Counted from the stretch's first letter, positions 19,333-31,981 are shown. The stretch: DNA of 64,000 nt from an uncultured Pseudomonadota bacterium (GCA_963745125.1 CAVUWB010000002.1:249092-313091), one strand, 5' to 3'. Notes: generated by a model not told the origin, from the letters alone. Translations and numbers: made by a program.

Positions 19333-19734
19333 TCATGGCGCGGTAACCTTGCTCATCATGACCTCTAACGCACCCGACATCGCCTTGATTCTGGCCGCTG
19401 TTTCATTACCAAGTTGATGGCGCTCCGCGAGCCAGTGCAGGTCGTTGTAGGACAGCCATGTCGTGGCCGAGGCGTCCCGCCAGACCAGCGCTTTGAGCGG
19501 CAAGTCGATACCCATCGTCTGGCGGCTTTCCATCAGCGGTGTGCCGGCAACGGCATTGCCAAAAATCAGCAGGTAGGTCGGCGGCAATGACAGGCCCGCC
19601 GCTACCGCGCCGGCCGCGTGATCGATCTGGGCAAAGACCGTCATGCCATGGCTTAGCACCTCCGCCTCCAGCCGATTGACCGTCTCCTCCGGCCCATAGC
19701 TGCTTTGCAAGGTGATCAGTCCATCGGTCGTCAT
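19333..19734 (-). CDS. DUF302 family protein
   Basis: VFAQIDHA, LLIFGNAVAGTPLM, GIDLPLKALVW. Confidence 0.85.
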   Translation of the reverse strand: MTTDGLITLQSSYGPEETVNRLEAEVLSHGMTVFAQIDHAAGAVAAGLSLPPTYLLIFGNAVAGTPLMESRQTMGIDLPLKALVWRDASATTWLSYNDLHWLAERHQLGNETAARIKAMSGALEVMMSKVTAP

Positions 19735-19763
19735 GGCGCGCACTCCTGTGATCGATGCCTGGT

Positions 19764-21191
19764 TCAGGTGGCGCGCCGCCAGCCACGGCTTCGGGTGACG
19801 GCATCGCTGAATGCCTCGGCCCAGGCGGCCCCGGCATCGCTCTGGGGCGTGAATAGCCTGCCGCTGTCCGGCAGCGAGGCTGAAATCTCCATGCCCGGCG
19901 GACAGGCGAGGGCAGCGGCGCCGAGCGCCGTCAATTCATCGAAATCCCTGCGCAGCACGTCACGCTTCAGGACGTCGGCAAGAAATTGGGAGAAGTAGTC
20001 GCTTCGCGCCACGCCGCCATCGATCCGGATCGCGCCGGCGATCGGCGATTGGCGATCGATCTCGCCGATCACCTCGGCGGCGCATAGCGCGATACCTTCC
20101 AGCACCGCCTGCACCATGTCGCGGCGCGTGGTGCCGCCGGTCATGCCGATCCAGACGGCCGCCGCGCTCCGGTCCCAATAGGGGCAGGCGAGGCCGGATA
20201 GCGCCGGCACGAAGGCGAGCCCCCTGGCAATCGCGGGTGGCTCGGCGAAGGCGCTCAACTCGGCCACATCCGTGAACAGGCCGAGTTGCCCGGCCCATTC
20301 CACAGCGGCACCCGCATCATAGACGCCGCCATCCACGGCATAGGTGGTTTGGCCGTCGAGCCGCCAGGCGGCGGTGGGCAGCAGGCCACGCTCCGGCCGT
20401 TTGACGATCGCCTCCCCGGTCACCGCGAGGGCGAAGGCACCCGTTCCGAAGGTGATCTTGGCGTCACCTGGGGCGCGGCAGCCATGACCGTAGAGTGCGG
20501 CCTGCTGGTCAACGACCGAGGCGCGGACGGGCCCGTTCGCGACGCTGCCGAAATCCCCCGCACTGTCCAGGATCGTGGGCAGGCACTCCCCCGGCACGGC
20601 GAAAAGATCGCAGAGCGCCGCATCCCAAGCGCCGGTCTCAAGGTTCATGAGCGAGGTGCGGGAGGCGGTGGTCACATCGGTCACGAACCGGCCGGTCAGA
20701 TGATGCAGGAAGAAGGCATCCGTGGTGCCGAGGCAAAGCCGCCCGGCGGCGCCGGCCGCTTTTACCTCGGGCAGTTCTTGCAGCAGCCAGGCAAGCTTGC
20801 TCGCGGAGAAATAGGGGTCGAGCGGCAAGCCCGCCCGCGCCAGCGTTTCGGCCTGCGCGCCGGCCGCCGCCAGTGCCGCAATCGTTGCGGCCGTGCGGTT
20901 GTCCTGCCAGACGATGACCGGGGAGAGCGGCTGCTTTGTAACCCTGTCCCAGGCGAGGCAGCTTTCGCCCTGATTGGCGAGGCCGATGGCCTGGGCCTTG
21001 CCCGCCGCCTCCAGGCAGGCGCGCAGATTGGCCAGCAACTCCAGCGGGTCATGCTCCACCCAGCCGGGCCGGGGAAAGCATTGGCCATGCCGAACGGCAT
21101 GGACGATGCGCGGCGCGGTGCCGGGTTCCAGCACCAGGGCGCGCGTGCTCGTCGTGCCCTGGTCCAAGCCGATGATCCGCCCGGCACTCAT
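19764..21191 (-). CDS. FGGY family kinase, glycerol-kinase-like with altered substrate site
   Basis: DQGTTSTR, GWVEHDP, WQDNRT, YFSASK, TDVTTASRT, DQQAAL, TFGTG; NQGES instead of GlpK NQRET. Confidence 0.9.
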   Translation of the reverse strand: MSAGRIIGLDQGTTSTRALVLEPGTAPRIVHAVRHGQCFPRPGWVEHDPLELLANLRACLEAAGKAQAIGLANQGESCLAWDRVTKQPLSPVIVWQDNRTAATIAALAAAGAQAETLARAGLPLDPYFSASKLAWLLQELPEVKAAGAAGRLCLGTTDAFFLHHLTGRFVTDVTTASRTSLMNLETGAWDAALCDLFAVPGECLPTILDSAGDFGSVANGPVRASVVDQQAALYGHGCRAPGDAKITFGTGAFALAVTGEAIVKRPERGLLPTAAWRLDGQTTYAVDGGVYDAGAAVEWAGQLGLFTDVAELSAFAEPPAIARGLAFVPALSGLACPYWDRSAAAVWIGMTGGTTRRDMVQAVLEGIALCAAEVIGEIDRQSPIAGAIRIDGGVARSDYFSQFLADVLKRDVLRRDFDELTALGAAALACPPGMEISASLPDSGRLFTPQSDAGAAWAEAFSDAVTRSRGWRRAT

Positions 21192-22417
21192 GCGATGATC
21201 TCGGCGATGATGGTCCCGGTCTCACCGGCAATGCGCAGCGCCGTGAGGGGGATCAGAATCCGCCGCTCCGGCAGGGCGGAGATCGGCCTCTCGAACAAGG
21301 TGCGGTCACCGTGGCGCAAGCGCAGCCGCCCCGAGACAGCGTGCGCCGCGCGCAGCTCCAGACCCTGCTTGCCGAGGCGATTATCGGGTGCGGCGAGGCG
21401 CTGCGGCACGACCAGCTTCACCCCGGTTCCGGCCTCGACTTCCAGACGCGGTGCTGGCGCGGGCAGCCGGCCGTCCAGATCGGCCAGGAGGCAAAGCGCG
21501 ATTCGCCGACCTTCGCGAAAGCTCCAGCCCGCCGTTTCCACGGCGCGCAGAATATTGCCGGCGGCGAAATAGGCGGGGTCGGAGCAGCGGCCGAACTGAT
21601 CGATGGCGGGCCCCTGGCTCGCCGGGTCCAGCGCCAGATGGCTCGCGCGGATGAGCGATGCCTCGGGCAGGAATTGCCCGGTCAGCAGCACGCCGTCACA
21701 GACGATGTCGCGCACCACGCCGTCCCCCGCACGCCGGACGGTCACGGCTTCAACCCGTGCCGTTCCGTGGATGGCTTGGATCTCGCGGCCCAAGAGCAGG
21801 GGAATGCCCAACAGCCGGGGCAGGAGCGTGAGCGGAAAGCGGGCGGTCGGGCGGTTATTCGCCTCAATGACGGCGGCGGGCCAGATGCCATGAGTGCGGC
21901 AGGTGGCGATCGCCGAGAGGCTGACCAACTCGGTGCCGAGAATGACCGGGCGGTGGAAGGGGATGAGTCTGTGCAGGTTGATGTAGGCTTGCAGCGCCCC
22001 GGTATTGAGGACGCCGAGCGGCCGGTCGCCCGACAGCAGCCGCGCCGAGCGGGGCGTCTCCCGCACGCCGGTTGCGACGAGCACGCGCCGCGCCTGGATC
22101 TGTTGCCGCCCGTCCGGTATCGCGATCTCCAGCAGGCCGTCCGGCAGCAGCCGCGTGACGCTCTGAAGGCAGCGCATCTGCACGCCCGCCGCGCGCGCCT
22201 GCTCCACCAGCCGCCGCGCATAGGCCGGCCCGGTCATGATGCGGCCGAATTCCCGCAGCCCGTAGGGCGGATGCGCGCAATGCCGTGGCACGCCGCCGGC
22301 CTCGCTCTCGCGTTCCAGCACGACGACTTGGTGAATACCGCCTTGGCGGAGCGCAATCGCCGCCGAGAGGCCCGCCGGCCCGCTGCCGATGATGGCGATA
22401 TCGACGGTCTCAGGCAT
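21188..22417 (-). CDS. FAD-dependent pyridine nucleotide-disulfide oxidoreductase-like subunit
   Basis: IIGSGPAGL, GGVPRHCAHPPYG, ATGVRE, FAAGN; overlaps both neighbours (translational coupling). Confidence 0.85.
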   Translation of the reverse strand: MPETVDIAIIGSGPAGLSAAIALRQGGIHQVVVLERESEAGGVPRHCAHPPYGLREFGRIMTGPAYARRLVEQARAAGVQMRCLQSVTRLLPDGLLEIAIPDGRQQIQARRVLVATGVRETPRSARLLSGDRPLGVLNTGALQAYINLHRLIPFHRPVILGTELVSLSAIATCRTHGIWPAAVIEANNRPTARFPLTLLPRLLGIPLLLGREIQAIHGTARVEAVTVRRAGDGVVRDIVCDGVLLTGQFLPEASLIRASHLALDPASQGPAIDQFGRCSDPAYFAAGNILRAVETAGWSFREGRRIALCLLADLDGRLPAPAPRLEVEAGTGVKLVVPQRLAAPDNRLGKQGLELRAAHAVSGRLRLRHGDRTLFERPISALPERRILIPLTALRIAGETGTIIAEIIA

Positions 22418-23819
22418 CGGCGGGGCCGATCGCGAGTGGGGTGGTAAAGCGGCCCTCGGTCAGCGCGGCAAGGCGGGCGCCGCAATAGAAGCCCTGGCAG
22501 CGGCCCATGCCGGCGCGGGTGCGGCGCTTCAGCCCGCCGATATCGCCGGCGGGAAGCGGGCCGGCGAGGGCCGCTTCGATCTCCCGCTTCGTCACCAGCT
22601 CGCAATGGCAGATGATCTCGCCATAGCCTGGCTTGGTCCAGTCCCGGGCCTCATGTTCGGCGAGGACGGGCAGAGCGGCGCAGGGCCGGCTGTCGGCCGC
22701 CGCGCGAGGCTGCGGGCGGTGCCGGTCGCCATACAGCGTCGCCACATGCTGCGCGATGCCGAGCGCGCCGGTCAGGCCCGTGGAGCGGATACCGCCGGCC
22801 ACAATGAGATGGCGCGCCGCGTCTTGGCGGATCTGGTAGTCGGCGTGCTCCGTCGCCGGCCGCAGCCCGGCATAGGTCGCGGTGACGGGCATGCCGGCCA
22901 AGGCGGGAAGAATGGCGCGGGCCTTGGTGATGAGCTGTTCCATCACCTCTCGTTCCACGGTCGCGCGGATACGGTCCGTCTGCTCCTCCGCCGTCGGGCC
23001 GACGAGAAGGTTGCCGAAGATGGTCGGCGTCAGCACGATACCCTTGGTGCGCTCCGTCGGCACGGGCAGGATGATCGCTGACAGCAGAGGTGCGGCGGCC
23101 TTGTCGAAGACCACGAACTGGCCTTTGCGCGGCCGGATGCCGAAGGCGCGCCCCGCCTCCAGCCGGTCATCGACGATATCGCCCCAGAGGCCGGCGGCGT
23201 TGATGACCGTCTCAGCCGTGACCGGGTCCTTGTTCGTCTCCAATGTCCAGATGTGCCCATCGAACCGGCCGGAGAGCACCTCCGTCTCCCGCAGCACGGT
23301 CGCCCCATGGGCGATCGCTTGGTGGATATAGGCGAGGGGGGTGGACCAGGGATCGATGAGATATTCGCCCGGCACCAGCAGCCCGCCCAGCACATTGGGC
23401 GAAAGATGCGGCTCGCGCGCCAGCACCTCGGCGGGCGTGAGCGGGCGCACATCGGCGACGCCGTTCTTCCAGGCTTTGGCGGCGATCTGGTCGAGCTTGG
23501 AGACTTCATCCTCGGTCCAGGCTGCGAGGATTGCCGAGCTTTGCAGGAGCGGGAGGCCCAACTCCTCCCGGATGCCGAGAAATTCGGCGTAGCCCGCCTG
23601 AACGCACTGCCATTCAAGGCTGCCGCTGGGCGCATCGAAGCCGGTATGCAGGATCGCGCTATTGCCCTTGCTGGCCCCGGCCAGAATGTCGGCCGCTTTC
23701 TCGATGACGGTGACCCGCGCGCCCATCAGGGCGAAGCGGCGGGCGATGGCGCAGCCCACAACACCCGCGCCAATCACCGCGACATCGAACCGGACCGCCG
23801 ATGTCATGTCTTGATCCAT
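22410..23819 (-). CDS. DAO/GlpO-like FAD dehydrogenase with C-terminal BFD-like [2Fe-2S] domain
   Basis: VIGAGVVG, SKGNSAILHTGFD, KGQF, GNLLVGPTA, AGLRP, GIRSTGLT, ICHCE...GMGRCQGFYC. Confidence 0.9.
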   Translation of the reverse strand: MDQDMTSAVRFDVAVIGAGVVGCAIARRFALMGARVTVIEKAADILAGASKGNSAILHTGFDAPSGSLEWQCVQAGYAEFLGIREELGLPLLQSSAILAAWTEDEVSKLDQIAAKAWKNGVADVRPLTPAEVLAREPHLSPNVLGGLLVPGEYLIDPWSTPLAYIHQAIAHGATVLRETEVLSGRFDGHIWTLETNKDPVTAETVINAAGLWGDIVDDRLEAGRAFGIRPRKGQFVVFDKAAAPLLSAIILPVPTERTKGIVLTPTIFGNLLVGPTAEEQTDRIRATVEREVMEQLITKARAILPALAGMPVTATYAGLRPATEHADYQIRQDAARHLIVAGGIRSTGLTGALGIAQHVATLYGDRHRPQPRAAADSRPCAALPVLAEHEARDWTKPGYGEIICHCELVTKREIEAALAGPLPAGDIGGLKRRTRAGMGRCQGFYCGARLAALTEGRFTTPLAIGPADA

Positions 23820-23896
23820 CCATCCGGAGATCTGGTGTCACGCAACGGGTTGCTCAAGCCGGCGGTGCGGCTTGAACAACCCGTCTTGTGGCGGTG

Positions 23897-25435
23897 TCAG
23901 ACTTCGCCCACGGCCCTTTCCTCGGCCGCGATCTCCTTGGCGCGGGCGGCAACCGCGGCGGCGCCGATCGGCGGCCCGGGGAAGTGCTTCCGCGCGACGC
24001 CGAACCAGATGATCGCCAGCAGAACGATCAGCCCGATGAAGTAGTTGTCGAGGATATCATTGGGCGGCCGCGTTCCGATGTAGATGATCACCAGGCCACC
24101 GACCAAGCTGACGATCGCGAGCGGCTTCGACAGAACACCGAGGCGGAAAGGCCCGAACTCCGTCCAGCGCGACCCTTCCGCGAAAAGCCCCGCCGCGATC
24201 GGCATCGTGTAGGAGATATAAAGGAACATCGCGCAGCCGGCTGCCAGCGCCGCGAAGGCGGGGGAGTAGAGCGTGGCGGCGATCGACAACACGGCTGTCA
24301 GCCAGATCGCGGGTACGGGCGCGCGGTGGCGGGAGCTGACCTGACGCCAGAACTTGTGGCCCGGCAGGCCACCGTCGCGGGAGAAGGCGTAGACCATGCG
24401 AGAGGTGGAGGTGACACCGGCCAAGGCACACAGATAGTTCGCGAGCACGATGCCGATATAGAGGACATCCTTCATCAGCGGATTGACCGGAAGGGCAGCG
24501 AGCAGGTTGAGGATAACGTTGCTGCCGTCGGCTGCCGCCTTCGTCTGGTTCGGCATGGCGAGGATGAAGGCCCCGGCCATCGCCAGGCCGAAGACTGCCG
24601 ACCAGATGATGGAGTTGAGCATGCCCTTCGGCACGTTGTGCCGTGCGTCCACCGTCTCCTCCGAGGTATGGGCGGAGGCGTCGAAGCCGGTCACGGTATA
24701 GAGGGGGTAGAGCAGGGCGAGCAGGAAGAGGTAGAAGGGGCTTGTGCTGGCCGGCACGACACTGCCACCCGGCGCGCCCGAATAATTGTGGAAGCTCACC
24801 AGCCGCGACAGATCGATATGCGTCGCACCGACAAGCATGGAGAGCGTCAGCAGGACGGCGACGACCAGAATGAGATAGCCGGAGAAGTCGATCAGCCTCG
24901 TCGTGGTCTTGATACCGAAGTGATTGAACAGCGCTTGCGACAGGGTGATGATGACGACGGCGATCGTCTGCTGCTCAAGCCCCCAGCTTGACGTGTTGAT
25001 GCCGAAAATATTTCCGAGAATGAGGCCGGTGAAAAGAAGGTAGACGCCGACGTTGACGGAGGCGATGACGAAGATCAGGCCGAGCATGTTGAACCAGGCG
25101 GTGGCCCAGCCCCAACCGCGCCCGCCGAGGATGGAAGACCAGTGGTATAGACCGCCCGCCGTGGGATAGGCGGAGGCGATCTGCGCCATCGACAGGCCGA
25201 CGATCAGCGCAAAGCTGCAGCCGACGATCCAGCCAAGGATGGTGGTGAGGCCGCCGCCGGTGCTGAACCCGACCTGAAAGGAGGTGATGCCGCCGGCCAA
25301 GATACAAATAATTGAAAACGATACAGCAAAGTTGGAAAAGCCGCCCATCCGGCGCGACAATTCCTGCGCATAGCCCATCTTGTGTAGTGTTTCCGAATCC
25401 GCGGCAAGTATATCTTTGTCCGACTGGCTAGACAT
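23897..25435 (-). CDS. APC superfamily amino acid/amine permease (GABA/choline-type)
   Basis: MGYAQELSRRMGGFSNFA, YPTAGGLYHW, GFDASAHTSEET, SRMVYAFSRDG; about 12 TMs. Confidence 0.92.
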   Translation of the reverse strand: MSSQSDKDILAADSETLHKMGYAQELSRRMGGFSNFAVSFSIICILAGGITSFQVGFSTGGGLTTILGWIVGCSFALIVGLSMAQIASAYPTAGGLYHWSSILGGRGWGWATAWFNMLGLIFVIASVNVGVYLLFTGLILGNIFGINTSSWGLEQQTIAVVIITLSQALFNHFGIKTTTRLIDFSGYLILVVAVLLTLSMLVGATHIDLSRLVSFHNYSGAPGGSVVPASTSPFYLFLLALLYPLYTVTGFDASAHTSEETVDARHNVPKGMLNSIIWSAVFGLAMAGAFILAMPNQTKAAADGSNVILNLLAALPVNPLMKDVLYIGIVLANYLCALAGVTSTSRMVYAFSRDGGLPGHKFWRQVSSRHRAPVPAIWLTAVLSIAATLYSPAFAALAAGCAMFLYISYTMPIAAGLFAEGSRWTEFGPFRLGVLSKPLAIVSLVGGLVIIYIGTRPPNDILDNYFIGLIVLLAIIWFGVARKHFPGPPIGAAAVAARAKEIAAEERAVGEV

Positions 25436-25785
25436 TGGTGCGACCTCTCGAAGAAAATACGTCTTTCACGAATAGAAGCGATGATTACTGTGGGTTAATC
25501 ATCCAAGGCTGCGTCGTATCGAAATCTCTGCCGCTCGCGTTGAAAGGCAGCCAATCCTGCGCGCACCCGACCGTTCGGGCACGCCGAACGGTCGATTCAA
25601 TGCCCATTCAGTCATCTACTTGACACAATTCAGCGATGCAAGCTTCTTATTGCCTGCGCGATGAGAGCGCGGCGACCGGAGCTGGAGGAACCTCGGGTCT
25701 TAATTCCACGCTAAAACAATGAATTAGGGAGGAATAGGAAGCCGATGGCGAACTCATTCCGATCTAAATATTTTCGGAGCTGGCT

Positions 25786-26559
25786 TTGGGCCCGACGGAG
25801 CGACGAAACGCTATCTTGGACATGAGCCGTGCGGGTGCGAGCCTGGCGGTGGAGGAAATCGCGGATCGCTTTGGCGTATCGCGTGAAACCGTTCGCCGCG
25901 ATCTTGCCCGGCTGGACGATGCCGGCCTGCTGCGCCGCGTCCATGGCGGCGCGGTGGTACCACGCTTGAGCAACGAGCCGCCCTTTCAGGAGCGGCAGAT
26001 GCTGAATATGGAGGCGAAGCGGCGCATCGGTCTGGCCGCCGCTGCCCTTTTCGAGCCGGGTGACAGCGTGATGATCGATACCGGTAGCACGACCGAGCAA
26101 TTCGCCATGGCGCTGGCCGCCAAGACCGATATCACCGTCATCACCAACTCGAATCGAATAGCGATGGCGATCTCGGCGGGGCCGGGGAAAAATCGCATCT
26201 TCGTTCTGGGGGGCGCTTTTCATACCGAGACCGGCCAAATCCTGGGGTCTCTCTGTATCGAGCAGTTGGCGAATTTCAGTGTCGATCACGCCGTGCTTGG
26301 CGTCGGCGCGCTGAGCGCCGATGGCTGCCTGATGGATTATGACGTGGACGAAGCCGCTCTGGCACGGGCCATGATCGCACGGGCGCAGACGGTGACAATC
26401 CTTGCGGACCACTCGAAATTCGATCGCCGGGCCCTGATTACGATCTGTCAGCTTGAAACGGTGACGAAACTCGTGACCGATCTGGCACCCTGCGGCGCTT
26501 TCGCGGATATGCTGGCCGCATCCCGGGTTGCGGCCATCGTTGCGGCCGACGCCGCTTAA
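25786..26559 (+). CDS. DeoR/GlpR family transcriptional regulator
   Basis: FGVSRETVRRDL HTH, RVHGGA, IDTGSTT, ITNS, ADHSKF; divergent from the permease operon. Confidence 0.93.
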   Translation: MGPTERRNAILDMSRAGASLAVEEIADRFGVSRETVRRDLARLDDAGLLRRVHGGAVVPRLSNEPPFQERQMLNMEAKRRIGLAAAALFEPGDSVMIDTGSTTEQFAMALAAKTDITVITNSNRIAMAISAGPGKNRIFVLGGAFHTETGQILGSLCIEQLANFSVDHAVLGVGALSADGCLMDYDVDEAALARAMIARAQTVTILADHSKFDRRALITICQLETVTKLVTDLAPCGAFADMLAASRVAAIVAADAA

Positions 26560-26748
26560 TCGGTCCGCCCCGGTGCGGGCCGATTGCCAATACGAAATTC
26601 AGTTCCGTAGAAGATCTTTGGGGAGCGCCCGACAGAGGCAAGCATCGATATAGCAACGTATAAGTGGTTTCATGATTGAGGAGTTGGAATGTGCTGCGCG
26701 CCGCCCCACAATGGGCCGGACTTCGTAACCTTCCAGGGTGGGACCATT

Positions 26749-28098
26749 ATGGCATTGCGCCGAAATCTGGGGCTGATGGAGGTGGTCGGCCTCTCCTTGT
26801 CGATGATCGCGCCAACCACGGCCATGGCCTTTAACGTCACACTGGCGGCGGGCGTCGCTGGTGTCGCGGCGCCACTGGCCTTCGCCATCAGCACCGTGGT
26901 GCTGGTGATTGTCGGGCTCTCCTTCCTGGTTTTCGCGCGCCGCATATCCAGTGCAGGCTCTGCCTACGCCTATATCACGGCGGAGTTCGGACCCTGGGTC
27001 GGCTTCGTCGCCGGTTGGGCGCTTCTGCTGACCTACACCGCCTTCGGCTCGGGCATCGCCGCGCTTGTCGGCGTCTTTCTGGACGCGGCACTGGGCAACT
27101 ACCATCTCGCCTTTCCGAAACTCTGGGTTCTCCATGGCACGCTCGCCATCCTGCTCGCCGCCTATCTCGCCTATCGGGACATGCAACGCGCGACCCGGCT
27201 GATGCTGGTGCTGGAAGCGACGTCCGTCCTGGCCATCATCGTGCTCGGTGTCATCATCCTCGAACAGGTCGGCACTAAGGGGGGCCTCTCCCTCGCGCCC
27301 TTCATGCCGGACAAAACCGCTGGCTGGTCCGGCGTCGGCTTCGCCCTCGTTTTTGCCGTGCTCTCCTTCGCCGGATTTGAAGGTGCGGCGACTTTGGGCG
27401 AGGAAGCGGCGCGCCCCAACCTCGCGATCCCGGTGGCTGTGGTCGGGACGGTTATCCTGGCCGGACTCTTCTTCGTGTTCACCGCCTATGCTCAGGTCAT
27501 TGGCTTCGGACTGGGGAATATGAAGGCGCTGGCCAACGCGGCAGCGCCGCTCAATGACTTAGCCCTGCGCTATGTCTCGCGTGATTACGCGACGGTGCTT
27601 GACCTCGCGGCGACGATTTCCGCATTCTCCTGCGTGCTCGCCTCGCTGAGCGCCGCCGCGCGGATGCTTTTCGCATTGAGCCGGGCAGGGCTCGCGCCCG
27701 GTCTCGCCACCACGGTCCCGCAATACGGCACGCCCGGGCGTGCCGTCATCGCCATAGGCGCCGCCATGCTGGCCGGTGTTCTGATCTGGGCGCCCTTTGT
27801 CGGCGGCAGCAATTACTACGGCGATTTAGGCACGATCGGCACGCTGCTCCTTATTCTCGTCTATATGGCAGTAACGGCGGCGGCGGCGCGGTACGCGATC
27901 AGGCAGCGTGACTTCGTCTGGGCGATCTTCGGGGCGCTCGGCGCTGTTTTCATGCTTTGGCCGCTCTACAACTCGGTCTATCCGGTGCCCGCCTTCCCCG
28001 GCAATCTATGGCCCTATGCCGTGGTCATCTATCTGGTGATGGGTGTCGGGCTGCTGGCCTTCCGGCCGAGCCTTGGGCATGCGCCACTGACAGATTGA
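26749..28098 (+). CDS. APC family amino acid/polyamine permease
   Basis: SAGSAYAY, SFAGFEGAATLGEEA, ARMLFALSR, YGTP; start likely 26749. Confidence 0.9.
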   Translation: MALRRNLGLMEVVGLSLSMIAPTTAMAFNVTLAAGVAGVAAPLAFAISTVVLVIVGLSFLVFARRISSAGSAYAYITAEFGPWVGFVAGWALLLTYTAFGSGIAALVGVFLDAALGNYHLAFPKLWVLHGTLAILLAAYLAYRDMQRATRLMLVLEATSVLAIIVLGVIILEQVGTKGGLSLAPFMPDKTAGWSGVGFALVFAVLSFAGFEGAATLGEEAARPNLAIPVAVVGTVILAGLFFVFTAYAQVIGFGLGNMKALANAAAPLNDLALRYVSRDYATVLDLAATISAFSCVLASLSAAARMLFALSRAGLAPGLATTVPQYGTPGRAVIAIGAAMLAGVLIWAPFVGGSNYYGDLGTIGTLLLILVYMAVTAAAARYAIRQRDFVWAIFGALGAVFMLWPLYNSVYPVPAFPGNLWPYAVVIYLVMGVGLLAFRPSLGHAPLTD

Positions 28099-28354: not shown

Positions 28355-30793
28355 ATGGGTTCCCCCGATGCCGGCACTGTATCAAAGTCCATAAGCGCCT
28401 ACGGTTCAGCGCGCTCGACAGTCGGCGGCCAGCCGCTCACCGCCGACGAATTGCGGCGCATGCAGCGTTATTGGGAAGCCTCGCTCTATATGTCGGCCGC
28501 GATGATTTACTTGCGGGACAACCCGCTCCTGCGGGAGCCGCTCAAACCGGAGCATATCAAACGGCGTCTGCTCGGGCATTGGGGTTCCGACCCCGGGATG
28601 AGCCTCATCTACATCCATCTCAATCGGCTGATTAAGAAGTATGATCTCGACGCCATCTTTCTGGCAGGCCCCGGCCATGGCGCGCCGGCCATCATCTCCA
28701 ACGCCTATCTGGAGGGTGGCTATTCGGAGGTCTATAGCGACATCAGCGAAGACGAAGAGGGTTTGCGCCGCCTCTTCAAGCAGTTCTCCTTCCCCGGCGG
28801 GATCGGCAGCCATTGCACGCCGGAAACGCCCGGCTCCATCCATGAGGGCGGTGAACTCGGCTATTCGATCTCGCACGCCTATGGCGCCGCATTCGACAAC
28901 CCTGATCTGATTGTCACGGTCATGGTCGGCGACGGTGAGTCCGAAACCGGGCCGCTCGCCACGGCCTGGCATTCCAACAAATTTCTCAACCCGGTTCGCG
29001 ACGGCGCCGTGCTGCCGGTGCTTCATCTGAACGGCTACAAGATCGCCAACCCCACCATCCTTGCCCGCGTCACCCATGATGAGGTGGAGCATCTTTTTCG
29101 CGGCTACGGCTACGAACCCTATTTCATCGAAGGGTCCGATCCCGAGACGATGCACCAGGCGGTCGCCGCGACACTGGAACACTGCATCGAGGAGATCCGC
29201 CGCATTCAGAAGGAAGCCCGGTCGGGGAAGGCAGAGGAGGTCACGCGGCCCCGTTGGCCGGTGGTGATCCTGCGCAGCCCCAAAGGCTGGACCGGACCCC
29301 GTGAAGTCGATGGTCACAAGGTGGAAGGATTTTGGCGTGCCCACCAGGTTCCGCTGGCGGAGGTCCATGAAAAGCCCGAGCACCTCAAGCTGCTGGATGG
29401 CTGGTTGAAGAGTTACCGGCCGGACGAGTTGTTCGACGCCGAAGGGCGCTTGATGCCGGAACTGCGCACGCTCGCCCCGGAAGGGGCGCGCCGCATGAGC
29501 CGCAACCCGCACGCGAATGGCGGCTTGCTGCGCAAATCGCTCCGCATCCCGAACTTCCGCGACTACGCGGTGGCGGCGGAGGAACCGGGCACGGCCCTTT
29601 TCAGCCCAACCGAGACTCTCGGCCAGTTTCTGCGGGATATCGCGCGCGCCAATCCACAGAATTTTCGTGTCTTCAGCCCGGACGAGAACGCTTCCAACCG
29701 ATTGACCGCAATCTACGAGGCCACAAAAAAGGTGTGGCTTGGCGCCTACTTTCCCGAAGATGCGGATGGCGGCGAATTGGCCCTGGATGGCCGGGTGATG
29801 GAGATGCTCAGCGAGCACACACTTGAGGGCTGGCTTGAGGGCTATCTGTTGACAGGACGGCACGGCTTCTTCTCGACCTATGAAGCCTTCGTCCACGTCA
29901 TCGATTCGATGTTCAACCAGCATGCCAAATGGCTGGAGAAATCGCGGGAGCTATCGTGGCGCGCTGAGGTATCCTCGCTCAACCTGCTGATCACCTCCAC
30001 GGTCTGGCGGCAGGACCACAACGGCTTCACGCATCAAGACCCCGGCTTCTTGGATGTTGTCGCGAATAAGAGCCCGGAGGTCACGCGCATCTATCTTCCG
30101 CCTGACGCCAACTGCCTCCTCTCCGTCGCAGACCACTGCCTCAGAAGCCACGACTATATCAACGTGATCGTGTCCGATAAGCAGCCGCATCTTTCCTACC
30201 TCGACATGGATTTCGCGGTCCGGCACTGCACCAAGGGTGCGGGCATCTGGCCATGGGCGAGCACTGACCACGACGTCGAGCCGGATGTTGTGATGGCCAG
30301 TTGCGGCGATGTGGCGACGATGGAAGCCTTGGCGGCAACCGCGTTGCTGCGCGGGCACTTCCCTGATCTGAGGCTGCGCTTCGTCAATGTCGTGGATCTG
30401 TTCCGCCTGCTGCCGGAATCGGAGCATCCGCATGGGTTCTCCGATCGTGACTTCGACGCGCTTTTCACATCGGACAAGCCGGTCATCTTCAATTTCCACG
30501 CCTATCCCTGGCTCATCCACCGACTGACCTATCGCCGGACCAATCATGGCAATATCCACGTCCGTGGCTACAAGGAAAAAGGCAATATCAACACGCCGAT
30601 GGAACTCGCCATTCAGAACCAGGTCGATCGGTTTACCCTGGCGATCGACGCTATCGACCGCGTGCCGTCATTGCGGATGAGAGGCGCGCATGCGCGGGAG
30701 ACGCTCAAGAACCAGCAGCTCGATTGCCGTCGCTACGCCTATGCCGAGGGCATCGACCCGCCCGACATCGTCAACTGGACGTGGTCGGTCTGA
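28355..30793 (+). CDS. xfp: Phosphoketolase (xylulose-5-P/fructose-6-P)
   Basis: [28 protein letters not shown] (TPP), [19 protein letters not shown]. Confidence 0.96.
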
Positions 30794-30808: not shown

Positions 30809-31981
30809 ATGGCGGGTGATCTGATCGGCGTCATCAATGCCGGCTCATCCTCCGTCAAGTTCAGCGTTTTCGAGGGTGAGCAGGCAATCCTCACGGCGCA
30901 GGTCGATGGCATTGGCGCTGATCCCAAAGCCACGGCCAGCGGCCGGAATCATGAGCCGGTCGCACCCCCGGAACTCGGCGAGACCCCGCCGAAAACGCCG
31001 AGCGACGCAATCCCCGCTATCCTGCGGTGGTCGGCGGCGTCGCTCGGCGGCCGAGGCCTCGCGGCGTTGGGTCATCGTGTCGTCCACGGCGGCGCGCATT
31101 TCCTCCGCCCGGTTCGCATCACGCCGCAGATCCTGTCGGAGCTGGACAGTCTGATCCCGCTTGCGCCGTTGCACGAACCTTTCAGCCTCGCCCCGATCAA
31201 GACAACGCTGCGGCTGCATCCGGACCTGGCGCAGATCGCCTGTTTCGACACGGCTTTTCATCACACCATGCCGGAGGTGAACCGTGTCTTCGCACTGCCC
31301 TACGCCTACGCCGAGGAGGGTGTGCGGCGCTACGGCTTCCATGGGCTGTCTTACGAATATATCGCCTCCGTCCTGCCGCAGCAGGCGCCCGAGATTGCAG
31401 CAGGCCGTGTCGTCGTCGTCCATCTCGGCAACGGATGTTCGGCCTGCGGCATGGTGAAGGGGCAGTCGGTTGCGACGACAATGGGCTTCACGGCGCTGGA
31501 CGGCCTGCCGATGGGGACGCGCTCCGGCGCGCTCGACCCGGGAGTTATTCTCTATCTTCTCATGCAGAAACGCATGACACCGGAGGCGATCAGCGATCTG
31601 CTTTACAAGAAATCGGGCATGCTTGGCCTGTCCGGCCTGTCCTCCGATTTTCGGGCGCTGCTATCAAGCGACTCTTCCCGTGCCCGTCTCGCGATCGATG
31701 TCTTTTGCCGGGAGACGGCGCGCCACATCGCGGGCTTGGCGGCCGCGCTGGATGGGTTGGATGGCGTGGTCTTCACGGCGGGGGTGGGCGAAAATGCCGC
31801 GCCCGTCCGGGCAGCGATCGCGCGCGCCTGTGCCTGGATGGGCCTGTCTCTCGACGAGACCGCCAATGCGGCGCATGCGGCTCGTATCAGCGCGGCGGGC
31901 AGCCGCATCGCCGCCTATGTCATCAAGACCGATGAGAACCGCATGATCGCGCGACATGCGCGCGCGATCCTCCAAACGTAA
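30809..31981 (+). CDS. ackA: Acetate kinase
   Basis: INAGSSSVKF, GHRVVHGG, FDTAFH, RYGFHGLSY, HLGNG, MGTRSG, FTAGVGEN. Confidence 0.95.
   Translation: MAGDLIGVINAGSSSVKFSVFEGEQAILTAQVDGIGADPKATASGRNHEPVAPPELGETPPKTPSDAIPAILRWSAASLGGRGLAALGHRVVHGGAHFLRPVRITPQILSELDSLIPLAPLHEPFSLAPIKTTLRLHPDLAQIACFDTAFHHTMPEVNRVFALPYAYAEEGVRRYGFHGLSYEYIASVLPQQAPEIAAGRVVVVHLGNGCSACGMVKGQSVATTMGFTALDGLPMGTRSGALDPGVILYLLMQKRMTPEAISDLLYKKSGMLGLSGLSSDFRALLSSDSSRARLAIDVFCRETARHIAGLAAALDGLDGVVFTAGVGENAAPVRAAIARACAWMGLSLDETANAAHAARISAAGSRIAAYVIKTDENRMIARHARAILQT

Follow-up and report, generated by a model that had tools for sequence, protein, structure and literature searches.

A Conserved Gene Module with a GlpK-Derived Kinase Lacking Arg83 and an FngAB-Type Flavoprotein Pair: A Candidate System for Amino-Alcohol Catabolism

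Gene content and control region

The window analyzed here is a stretch of 64,000 nucleotides (nt) from an uncultured Pseudomonadota bacterium (GCA_963745125.1, CAVUWB010000002.1:249092-313091), and the system in question is a group of six genes at positions 19764-28098, with a kinase derived from the glycerol kinase GlpK, a two-subunit flavoprotein, two APC-superfamily permeases and a DeoR-family regulator. An earlier note, made from the sequence alone, had proposed the group as an undescribed catabolic pathway for an amine-bearing analogue of glycerol. Gene content was determined from the listing of open reading frames (ORFs) and from family scans (Pfam-type domains and NCBIfam) of the window proteins, and all six genes, four on the minus strand and two divergent from them, were recovered.

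The minus-strand operon begins with APC1 (23897-25435), a permease matching AA_permease_2 at 177 bits and presumed to import the substrate. Its best NCBIfam match is TIGR00907 (amino acid permease, 2A0304), with 220.6 bits, below the cut-off of 598.3. Next come a FAD dehydrogenase of the DAO fold with a C-terminal BFD-type [2Fe-2S] domain (22410-23819, minus strand; DAO PF01266, 212 bits; Fer2_BFD PF04324, 34 bits with a cut-off of 26), presumed to be the substrate-oxidising subunit, and a second FAD protein (21188-22417, minus strand; Pyr_redox_2, 57.7 bits). For reasons given below, they are called FngA-like and FngB-like. The operon continues with an FGGY kinase (19764-21191, minus strand; FGGY_N and FGGY_C), presumably an amino-alcohol kinase. 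The FngB-like gene overlaps both of its neighbours, by 4 nt with the kinase gene (21188-21191) and by 8 nt with the FngA-like gene (22410-22417), so the three enzyme genes do overlap as had been claimed.

The DeoR/GlpR-family regulator (25786-26559, plus strand) is divergent from the operon and was recognized by HTH_DeoR (58 bits) and DeoRC (155 bits), with scores under all NCBIfam equivalog cut-offs, that of GlpR included. An orthologue with 37-46% identity adjoins the module in 20 of the first 41 related loci. From its family, it is presumed to be a repressor that senses a phosphorylated intermediate. The intergenic control region between APC1 and the regulator (25436-25785) contains a perfect 11-nt inverted repeat, CGACCGTTCGG-N5-CCGAACGGTCG, at 25568-25594. 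This palindrome was considered as a conserved operator but is absent in Acidisoma, so it is at most a possible one.

The second permease, APC2 (26689-28098, plus strand; AA_permease, 98 bits), lies downstream of the regulator and matches the ethanolamine permease model TIGR00908 weakly (56 bits). Its membership of the system, assumed in the earlier note, is doubtful: the closest relative, Acidisoma, has no adjoining orthologue, and the APC genes near the module in two other loci (L008 and L009) are merely 25-27% identical to it.

The kinase clade and the flavoprotein pair

The kinase has both FGGY domains (162 and 105 bits) and keeps the VDQQ motif of the family. GlpK (TIGR01311) is its best NCBIfam match, with 421 bits, below the equivalog cut-off of 590, and its closest named relative is the kinase of Acidisoma cellulosilytica (84% identity). 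The organism of the window is therefore probably a member of the Acetobacteraceae. The YFS and DQ of GlpK are kept within DPYFSA and VDQQAA, but in ANQGES the Arg of NQRET is replaced by Gly, just as the note had read them. A genome-wide scan yielded 80 loci, and their kinases were aligned with E. coli GlpK from NC_000913. NQGE[ST] was found in 42 of the 42 kinases with 42-74% identity to the window kinase, while NQRET, with Arg83, was found in each of the 38 canonical GlpKs aligned. The former share about 40% identity with canonical GlpKs and form a monophyletic clade with a long stem (FastTree support of 1.0), so the claimed loss of the glycerol-binding Arg marks a distinct GlpK-derived clade, here called the Gly83 clade. 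With a gene order of DAO, Pyr_redox_2, kinase repeated in some 35 loci of many lineages, and with Gly83 in every clade member, the arrangement and the NQGES pattern are not products of chance.

Position 244 is also changed across the clade (G244V), position 106 is N in most members, and E303D, S305G and F307Y further separate it from canonical GlpKs. The stretches matching E. coli GlpK residues 64-71 and 229-231 are deleted; we take them to lie in the tetramer-interface and fructose-1,6-bisphosphate-loop regions. What the clade shares with GlpK is the two-domain fold, the catalytic Asp245, Glu84, Tyr135, Trp103 and Phe270, and the phosphate loops. Besides, a canonical GlpK is encoded on another contig of the window's genome (650 bits, with NQRET and AGDQQAA), and the two kinases therefore coexist.

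Arg83, Glu84, Tyr135, Asp245 and Phe270 constitute the specificity signature of GlpK, identical across GlpKs, and all except Phe270 hydrogen-bond glycerol (Zhang et al. 2011, PMC3245297). In the window kinase, these five positions read Gly-Glu-Tyr-Asp-Phe. In the P. falciparum enzyme (PfGK), a salt bridge between Arg83 and Glu306 is found near the glycerol site (PMC2680290), and residues 303-307 of the window kinase were assumed to be equivalent to PfGK Glu306-Ser308. On that assumption, we infer a pocket that is anionic and enlarged, suited to an ammonium-bearing substrate; it is read as anionic because the cationic Arg is gone while Glu84 and the acid at 303 remain.

Outside the clade, a GlpK-like kinase of a Calditrichaceae genome (L043:1-2584) has an independent change of Arg83 to Gly (NQGET). 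Its gene lies 83 nt downstream of an APC permease gene and is followed by genes for an aromatic amino acid lyase and an RpiB-like isomerase. An independent R83G kinase beside an APC permease fits the reading of an amine substrate. A similar cluster near PA1485-PA1490 of P. aeruginosa had been mentioned in the earlier note, and this was borne out as far as PA1487 is an uncharacterised GlpK paralogue (PMC8151288).

The flavoproteins resemble FngABC, an electron-bifurcating glycerol-3-phosphate (G3P) oxidoreductase defined by Schut, Poole and Adams (2026, PMC13689815), with examples in P. furiosus (PF2005-2007) and T. kodakarensis (TK1393-1391). FngA has DAO and BFD domains, FngB is a NOX-like FAD protein and FngC is a DUF1667 [4Fe-4S] protein; FngAB pairs without FngC were noted in some Alpha- and Gammaproteobacteria, with no function given (PMC13689815). 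The window pair fits the FngAB architecture, with the DAO and BFD-like [2Fe-2S] domains in one subunit, a second FAD subunit (Pyr_redox_2), coupled genes and an adjoining GlpK-type kinase. The claim that the pair is undescribed was thus overstated: its type was already listed as 'FngAB', though with no function assigned (PMC13689815).

FngC (DUF1667, PF07892) was found neither in the window's genome (completeness rating of 62%) nor in any of 44 clade loci, whereas it is present in a canonical locus of Chloroflexota (L049) with the gene order glpF-glpK(NQRET)-fngA-fngB-fngC, presumed to be ancestral. The last 90 residues of the FngB-like protein do not include a Cys, and the idea of an FngC fused there was therefore rejected.

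The best solved relative of the FngA-like subunit is M. pneumoniae GlpO (MpGlpO, 4X9M), with His51 of the latter aligned to His58. In GlpO, His51 is the base that deprotonates the C2 hydroxyl, and a His base is common to GlpO and L2HGDH (PMC10726252). The score against the type 2 glycerol-3-phosphate oxidase model NF033460 was 200.7 bits, below the cut-off of 460. His58, Lys259 and Arg320 are conserved, and the last two align with GlpO residues that we take to be phosphate binders. Retention of the catalytic His and of these presumed phosphate-binding residues agrees with the proposal of the earlier note that the substrate is phosphorylated and then oxidised. Relative to the Chloroflexota FngAs, the FngA-like clade has invariant G152E, K69E, F158W and A164Y changes, the first two being gains of acids, and its BFD domain contains a fourth Cys.

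The second dinucleotide motif of the FngB-like subunit is I-x-G-T-E-L-V-S across the clade (L001-L041) and GSGDIG in the FngB of the Chloroflexota locus. The QC[IV]H motif (QCVH) stressed for FngB by Schut et al. (PMC13689815) is RHC[GA]H throughout. Since the NAD-binding GxGxxG of the FngB-like protein is degenerate, NAD+ seems an unlikely electron acceptor of the pair, which probably uses another one.

Conservation, transporters and links to ethanolamine metabolism

Genes were called by a simple heuristic based on ORFs and third-position GC content in the 44 clade loci and their products were clustered; as related genomes are not independent samples, the counts below are to be read accordingly. 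FngA and FngB adjoin the kinase in about 35 of the 44 loci, and most of the others are cut by contig ends. Module loci were found in Alpha-, Beta- and Gammaproteobacteria and in genomes labelled Haliangium (Myxococcota), Desulfobacteraceae, Desulfuromusa and Lutibacter, with a patchy distribution, the module being present in 4 of 40 sampled relatives of the window's genome. Many named homologues of the kinase are labelled 'glycerol kinase', and canonical FngA relatives 'glycerol-3-phosphate dehydrogenase'. The literature covered on serinol, ethanolamine, GlpK Arg83, PA1487 and FGGY kinases includes no paper assigning the module a substrate. The module is real, widely conserved and uncharacterised.

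Window-type modules sit among amine transporters, not GlpF. No GlpF gene was detected in the 44 clade loci (0/44), in line with the note, while 32 of them have amine/ethanolamine-type transporters from four unrelated families. APC1 orthologues are found in 12 loci of Acetobacteraceae, Hyphomicrobium and Betaproteobacteria, and in the 11 besides the window they are 52-89% identical and directly upstream of the flavoprotein gene. EutH (PF04346) is found in 7 loci of the P. fluorescens group, Serratia and Lutibacter; DctPQM systems of the tripartite ATP-independent periplasmic (TRAP) type in 10 loci of Arenicellales, Sneathiella, Donghicola, Spiribacter, Haliangium and Desulfuromusa; and PotD/PotF-like ATP-binding cassette (ABC) systems in 3-5 loci. 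The 39 canonical GlpK loci have GlpF where detectable, and their amine-type transporters amount to three weak APC matches at 24-26% (L043, L060 and L067). Thus, the expected co-occurrence of NQGES-type kinases with amine transporters held in the gene neighbourhoods, although of the two permeases first linked to the pathway APC2 falls outside the conserved module. Twelve of the 44 loci have no adjoining transporter, 5 of them being truncated; conserved extra enzymes were sought in the transporterless loci L001, L002, L014, L022 and L035, and only unrelated genes were found. In loci of the P. fluorescens group (L081:12601-15320), genes for DUF1937 and DUF1989 proteins come after the EutH gene that adjoins the module.

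The window itself has no TRAP system. In the loci that do, the binding proteins match 4UAB/4XF5 (Csal_0678) at 465-470 bits, with about 70% identity. Csal_0678 and Phaeobacter EtoX bind ethanolamine (dissociation constant of 7.9 µM for EtoX), and both serve the γ-glutamylation pathway (PMC10132767; PMC12410723). In five genomes, the module-linked protein is the sole EtoX homologue. To place these proteins, 301 genomes of the class were sampled and the surroundings of 29 further homologues were fetched (TRAP loci L126-L154). The maximum-likelihood tree divides the EtoX-family binding proteins into two clades, separated by a branch of 0.42 with 100/100 support. The 13 module-linked proteins all fall into clade A, together with one other. 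Clade B holds 24 proteins, none with the module within 9 kb, and many of their genes adjoin the γ-glutamyl-pathway set of RpiR, FGase-type amidohydrolase, glutamine-synthetase-like enzyme, aldehyde dehydrogenase and iron-containing alcohol dehydrogenase. Csal_0678 falls with clade B, one of whose members it matches at 647 bits; the module-linked proteins are thus not members of the Csal_0678/4UAB clade but of its sister clade. A further observation concerns the clade-A member of a 1.4-Mb genome (L130), which sits with genes for a glutamine-synthetase-like enzyme, an aldehyde dehydrogenase, an iron-containing alcohol dehydrogenase and a class III aminotransferase.

Clade A has fixed changes flanking Glu220 (S216C, I218F, D221A and T223E), in a numbering that assumes an offset of +3 from the PDB chain (chain Glu217 being the published Glu220). 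Glu220 is the ligand-holding platform residue of 4UAB, a role taken from a single source (PMC12410723). Other fixed changes are D99A, T178G, F179V and F233A, with a bulky residue replaced by a small one in F179V, F233A and T178G. This pattern suggests a ligand related to ethanolamine but larger or less strongly hydrogen-bonded.

The two bacterial ethanolamine routes in the literature covered are the B12-dependent one of EutBC and γ-glutamylation, and the module is physically linked to enzymes of both. In two Betaproteobacteria (L029:1518-12890 and L030:5463-15064), the gene order is APC1-FngA-FngB-kinase-EutA-EutBC(fused)-B12-binding protein, with a gap of 22 nt between the kinase gene and eutA in L029; the fused EutB-EutC proteins have 728-734 amino acids and are about 40% identical to standard EutB. 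The Donghicola module (L037) has a divergent neighbour, a DeoR-DctQMP-EutB-EutC operon. The ethanolamine ammonia-lyase large subunit EutB (PF06751) had no match in the window's genome at its 62% completeness. Further, genome G258 (L127) has a TRAP system, APC1, a glutamine-synthetase-like enzyme and an aldehyde dehydrogenase ahead of FngA-FngB-kinase. In other Betaproteobacteria, Peptidase_C26 and choline/ethanolamine-kinase-family genes flank the module, and the latter adjoin the kinase gene in four loci. These gene links tie the module firmly to amino-alcohol metabolism, and it accompanies both known ethanolamine routes rather than simply replacing them.

A Desulfobacteraceae locus (L039:646-8271) combines a Gly83 kinase gene and a PotD-like ABC system with a DeoR gene, from which they are separated by the gene of a class V aminotransferase; FngAB is not visible there, the contig ending just past the kinase gene. 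It may be an anaerobic version in which transamination replaces flavin oxidation, and an aminotransferase in the place of FngAB fits the removal of the amino group after phosphorylation. In Phaeobacter MED193, a 'GlpR' (MED193_11439) is up on phosphoethanolamine, and the nearby PotA and PotD (MED193_11419 and 11424) are up under phosphorus stress (PMC10132767). This layout recalls the loci with a PotD-like ABC system, DeoR and the module (L025 and L039).

Proposed substrate and alternatives

The reading that we favour, tentatively and at slightly less than even confidence, is that the module, under the control of DeoR, serves to catabolise a small amino alcohol that is cationic and exceeds the related ethanolamine in size. 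A C3 aminopropanediol would be the likeliest substrate, be it 3-amino-1,2-propanediol, serinol or a derivative substituted at the nitrogen. APC1 would import the amino alcohol and the GlpK-derived kinase would phosphorylate its terminal hydroxyl; without Arg83, Glu84 and Asp303 would be unpaired and free to hold the ammonium of the substrate. Then, the FngA/FngB flavin and [2Fe-2S] dehydrogenase would oxidise the carbon adjacent to the phosphomethyl group of the phospho-ester, giving a triose phosphate and ammonium or else 3-amino-2-oxopropyl phosphate, with electrons leaving through an acceptor other than NAD+, and the phosphorylated intermediate would release DeoR from the promoter. Serinol phosphate would yield dihydroxyacetone phosphate and ammonium. 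For 3-amino-2-hydroxypropyl phosphate, the products would be glyceraldehyde-3-phosphate and ammonium, or 3-amino-2-oxopropyl phosphate if the hydroxyl were oxidised. Conservation is limited to the kinase and the dehydrogenase, and from this their product is expected to lie near central metabolism, a requirement that C3 aminodiols satisfy. A ligand larger than ethanolamine would agree with the predicted enlargement and anionic character of the kinase pocket, with the gain of acids in FngA and with the apparently enlarged pocket of the binding proteins.

Known systems offer partial precedents. In the erythritol catabolism of Brucella (EryA/EryB/EryD), an FGGY kinase is combined with a FAD-dependent polyol-phosphate dehydrogenase and a DeoR-type repressor, EryB being a single GlpD-type protein and transport being of the sugar ABC type. 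The module follows the same logic, but its kinase is GlpK-derived and not EryA-like. In the routes of Erwinia and Mycobacterium with an amino-alcohol kinase and an O-phosphate phospho-lyase, phosphorylation comes first, by a kinase of the APH/choline-kinase fold, and a pyridoxal phosphate-dependent lyase acts second. They are a precedent for phosphorylating first, whereas the second enzyme of the module is a flavoprotein. With the EutBC short operons, the module shares transporter kinds (EutH and APC), but it has no B12 enzyme of its own. With the γ-glutamylation route of C. salexigens and Phaeobacter MED193 (PMC10132767), it shares uptake by EtoX-family TRAP systems (10 loci) and enzyme neighbours (the glutamine-synthetase-like and aldehyde dehydrogenase types in one cluster, and Peptidase_C26 in Betaproteobacteria), while the proposed chemistry would be ATP-dependent phosphorylation and flavin oxidation instead. 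A kinase with a dehydrogenase is a known type of catabolic module, which here would be retooled for an amine substrate.

In broader terms, the module might be a third route, independent of B12 and glutamate, for ethanolamine-class head-group amines, in which GlpK was recruited as an amino-alcohol kinase through the loss of one Arg and G3P dehydrogenase as a phospho-amino-alcohol dehydrogenase, yielding a phosphorylated C2 or C3 carbonyl and ammonium; we regard this as doubtful. In guts, soils and the ocean, ethanolamine and similar head-group amines rank among the major sources of carbon and nitrogen, and the module, if rightly interpreted, would give amino alcohols a new way into metabolism. 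Moreover, it would represent a clean specificity switch in two well-studied families, with GlpK losing an invariant Arg and FngAB losing the NAD site and FngC, and the labels 'glycerol kinase' and 'glycerol-3-phosphate dehydrogenase' would probably be wrong for this clade.

Several points weigh against a C3 aminopropanediol. Gene content, the clade-wide residue changes and the transporter associations were observed, but substrate, product, electron acceptor and effector were all deduced from sequence and gene context, and the pocket arguments depend on alignment and published structures. Despite the wide occurrence of the module, C3 aminopropanediols are not known to abound in nature. The conserved catalytic His suits the oxidation of an alcohol, which would turn 3-amino-1,2-propanediol into 3-amino-2-oxopropyl phosphate, not a central catabolite. 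Other observations point to ethanolamine itself: ethanolamine ammonia-lyase (EutBC or EutA-EutBC) in the same operon or regulon in L029, L030 and L037, the glutamine-synthetase-like and aldehyde dehydrogenase genes with the module in one locus, and the five genomes whose only EtoX homologue is the module-linked TRAP protein. With ethanolamine as the substrate, the kinase would form phosphoethanolamine, FngAB would oxidise its C-N bond to phosphoglycolaldehyde and ammonium, and housekeeping enzymes would produce phosphoglycolate and glycolate, a third, B12-independent route that we consider unlikely. Transporters of ethanolamine type (EutH, and EtoX-family TRAP proteins about 70% identical to Csal_0678; PMC10132767) and the choline/ethanolamine-kinase-family gene beside the kinase in four loci speak for it as well, and the oxidised carbon of phosphoethanolamine is placed relative to the phosphate like C2 of G3P. 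However, co-expression with ethanolamine ammonia-lyase at a distance of 22 nt in L029 would mean two competing routes for one substrate, and the module-linked binding proteins form a clade apart from the validated binders, with changes beside the ligand-holding Glu. In addition, R83G would enlarge the kinase pocket, which a smaller substrate would need filled, phosphoglycolaldehyde lies outside central metabolism and the module has no conserved aldehyde dehydrogenase, and amine oxidation does not need the conserved His base.

Quite improbable, in our estimate, is an ordinary second glycerol/G3P system that salvages the glycerol of phosphatidylethanolamine head groups and is co-regulated with ethanolamine uptake. 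GlpK is by far the best family match of the kinase, Asp245, Glu84, Tyr135, Trp103 and Phe270 are kept, and the Chloroflexota locus has the presumably ancestral arrangement with glpF and an NQRET kinase beside fngABC. The signature Arg83 is nevertheless lost in every clade member, the kinase scores below the GlpK equivalog cut-off, GlpF is absent from the 44 loci, both FngA and the binding protein have clade-specific charge changes, and the window's genome already has a canonical GlpK. The Pseudomonas carriers of the module presumably have one too. In favour of such a system, the FngA homologues of Pyrococcus and Thermococcus oxidise G3P (PMC13689815), glycerophosphoethanolamine as a shared source could explain the links to both ethanolamine routes, and the regulator that is up in Phaeobacter on phosphoethanolamine is GlpR-like.

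More improbable still is a reversed order, in which FngAB would deaminate the free amino alcohol to dihydroxyacetone, glyceraldehyde or glycolaldehyde before this carbonyl product is phosphorylated by the kinase, or another polyol or a reductive direction. Heteromeric enzymes of DAO and Pyr_redox_2 subunits (sarcosine oxidase, opine oxidase and hydrogen cyanide synthase) oxidise free amines, and GlpK-type kinases accept dihydroxyacetone and glyceraldehyde. Operation of FngAB pairs in reverse was suggested by Schut et al. (PMC13689815). Against this, DeoR regulators typically sense phosphorylated intermediates, and the kinase lost a cationic Arg while keeping its acids, which argues that the kinase itself meets the cationic substrate. 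FngA also keeps the His base together with the Lys and Arg that we take to match the phosphate binders of GlpO.

A gene for a DUF302 protein (19333-19743, minus strand) begins 20 nt past the kinase stop on the same strand and may be co-transcribed with it. The match of the protein is to the DUF302 half of an NCBIfam model that takes its name from a CrcB fusion, and the protein did not cluster with the small ORFs trailing the kinase in other loci. On the other side, a phosphoketolase gene (28355-30793, plus strand; 1520 bits) lies directly downstream of APC2, a position next to the module that is not conserved in other genomes, and it is followed by an ORF of 390 amino acids (30809-31981, plus strand).

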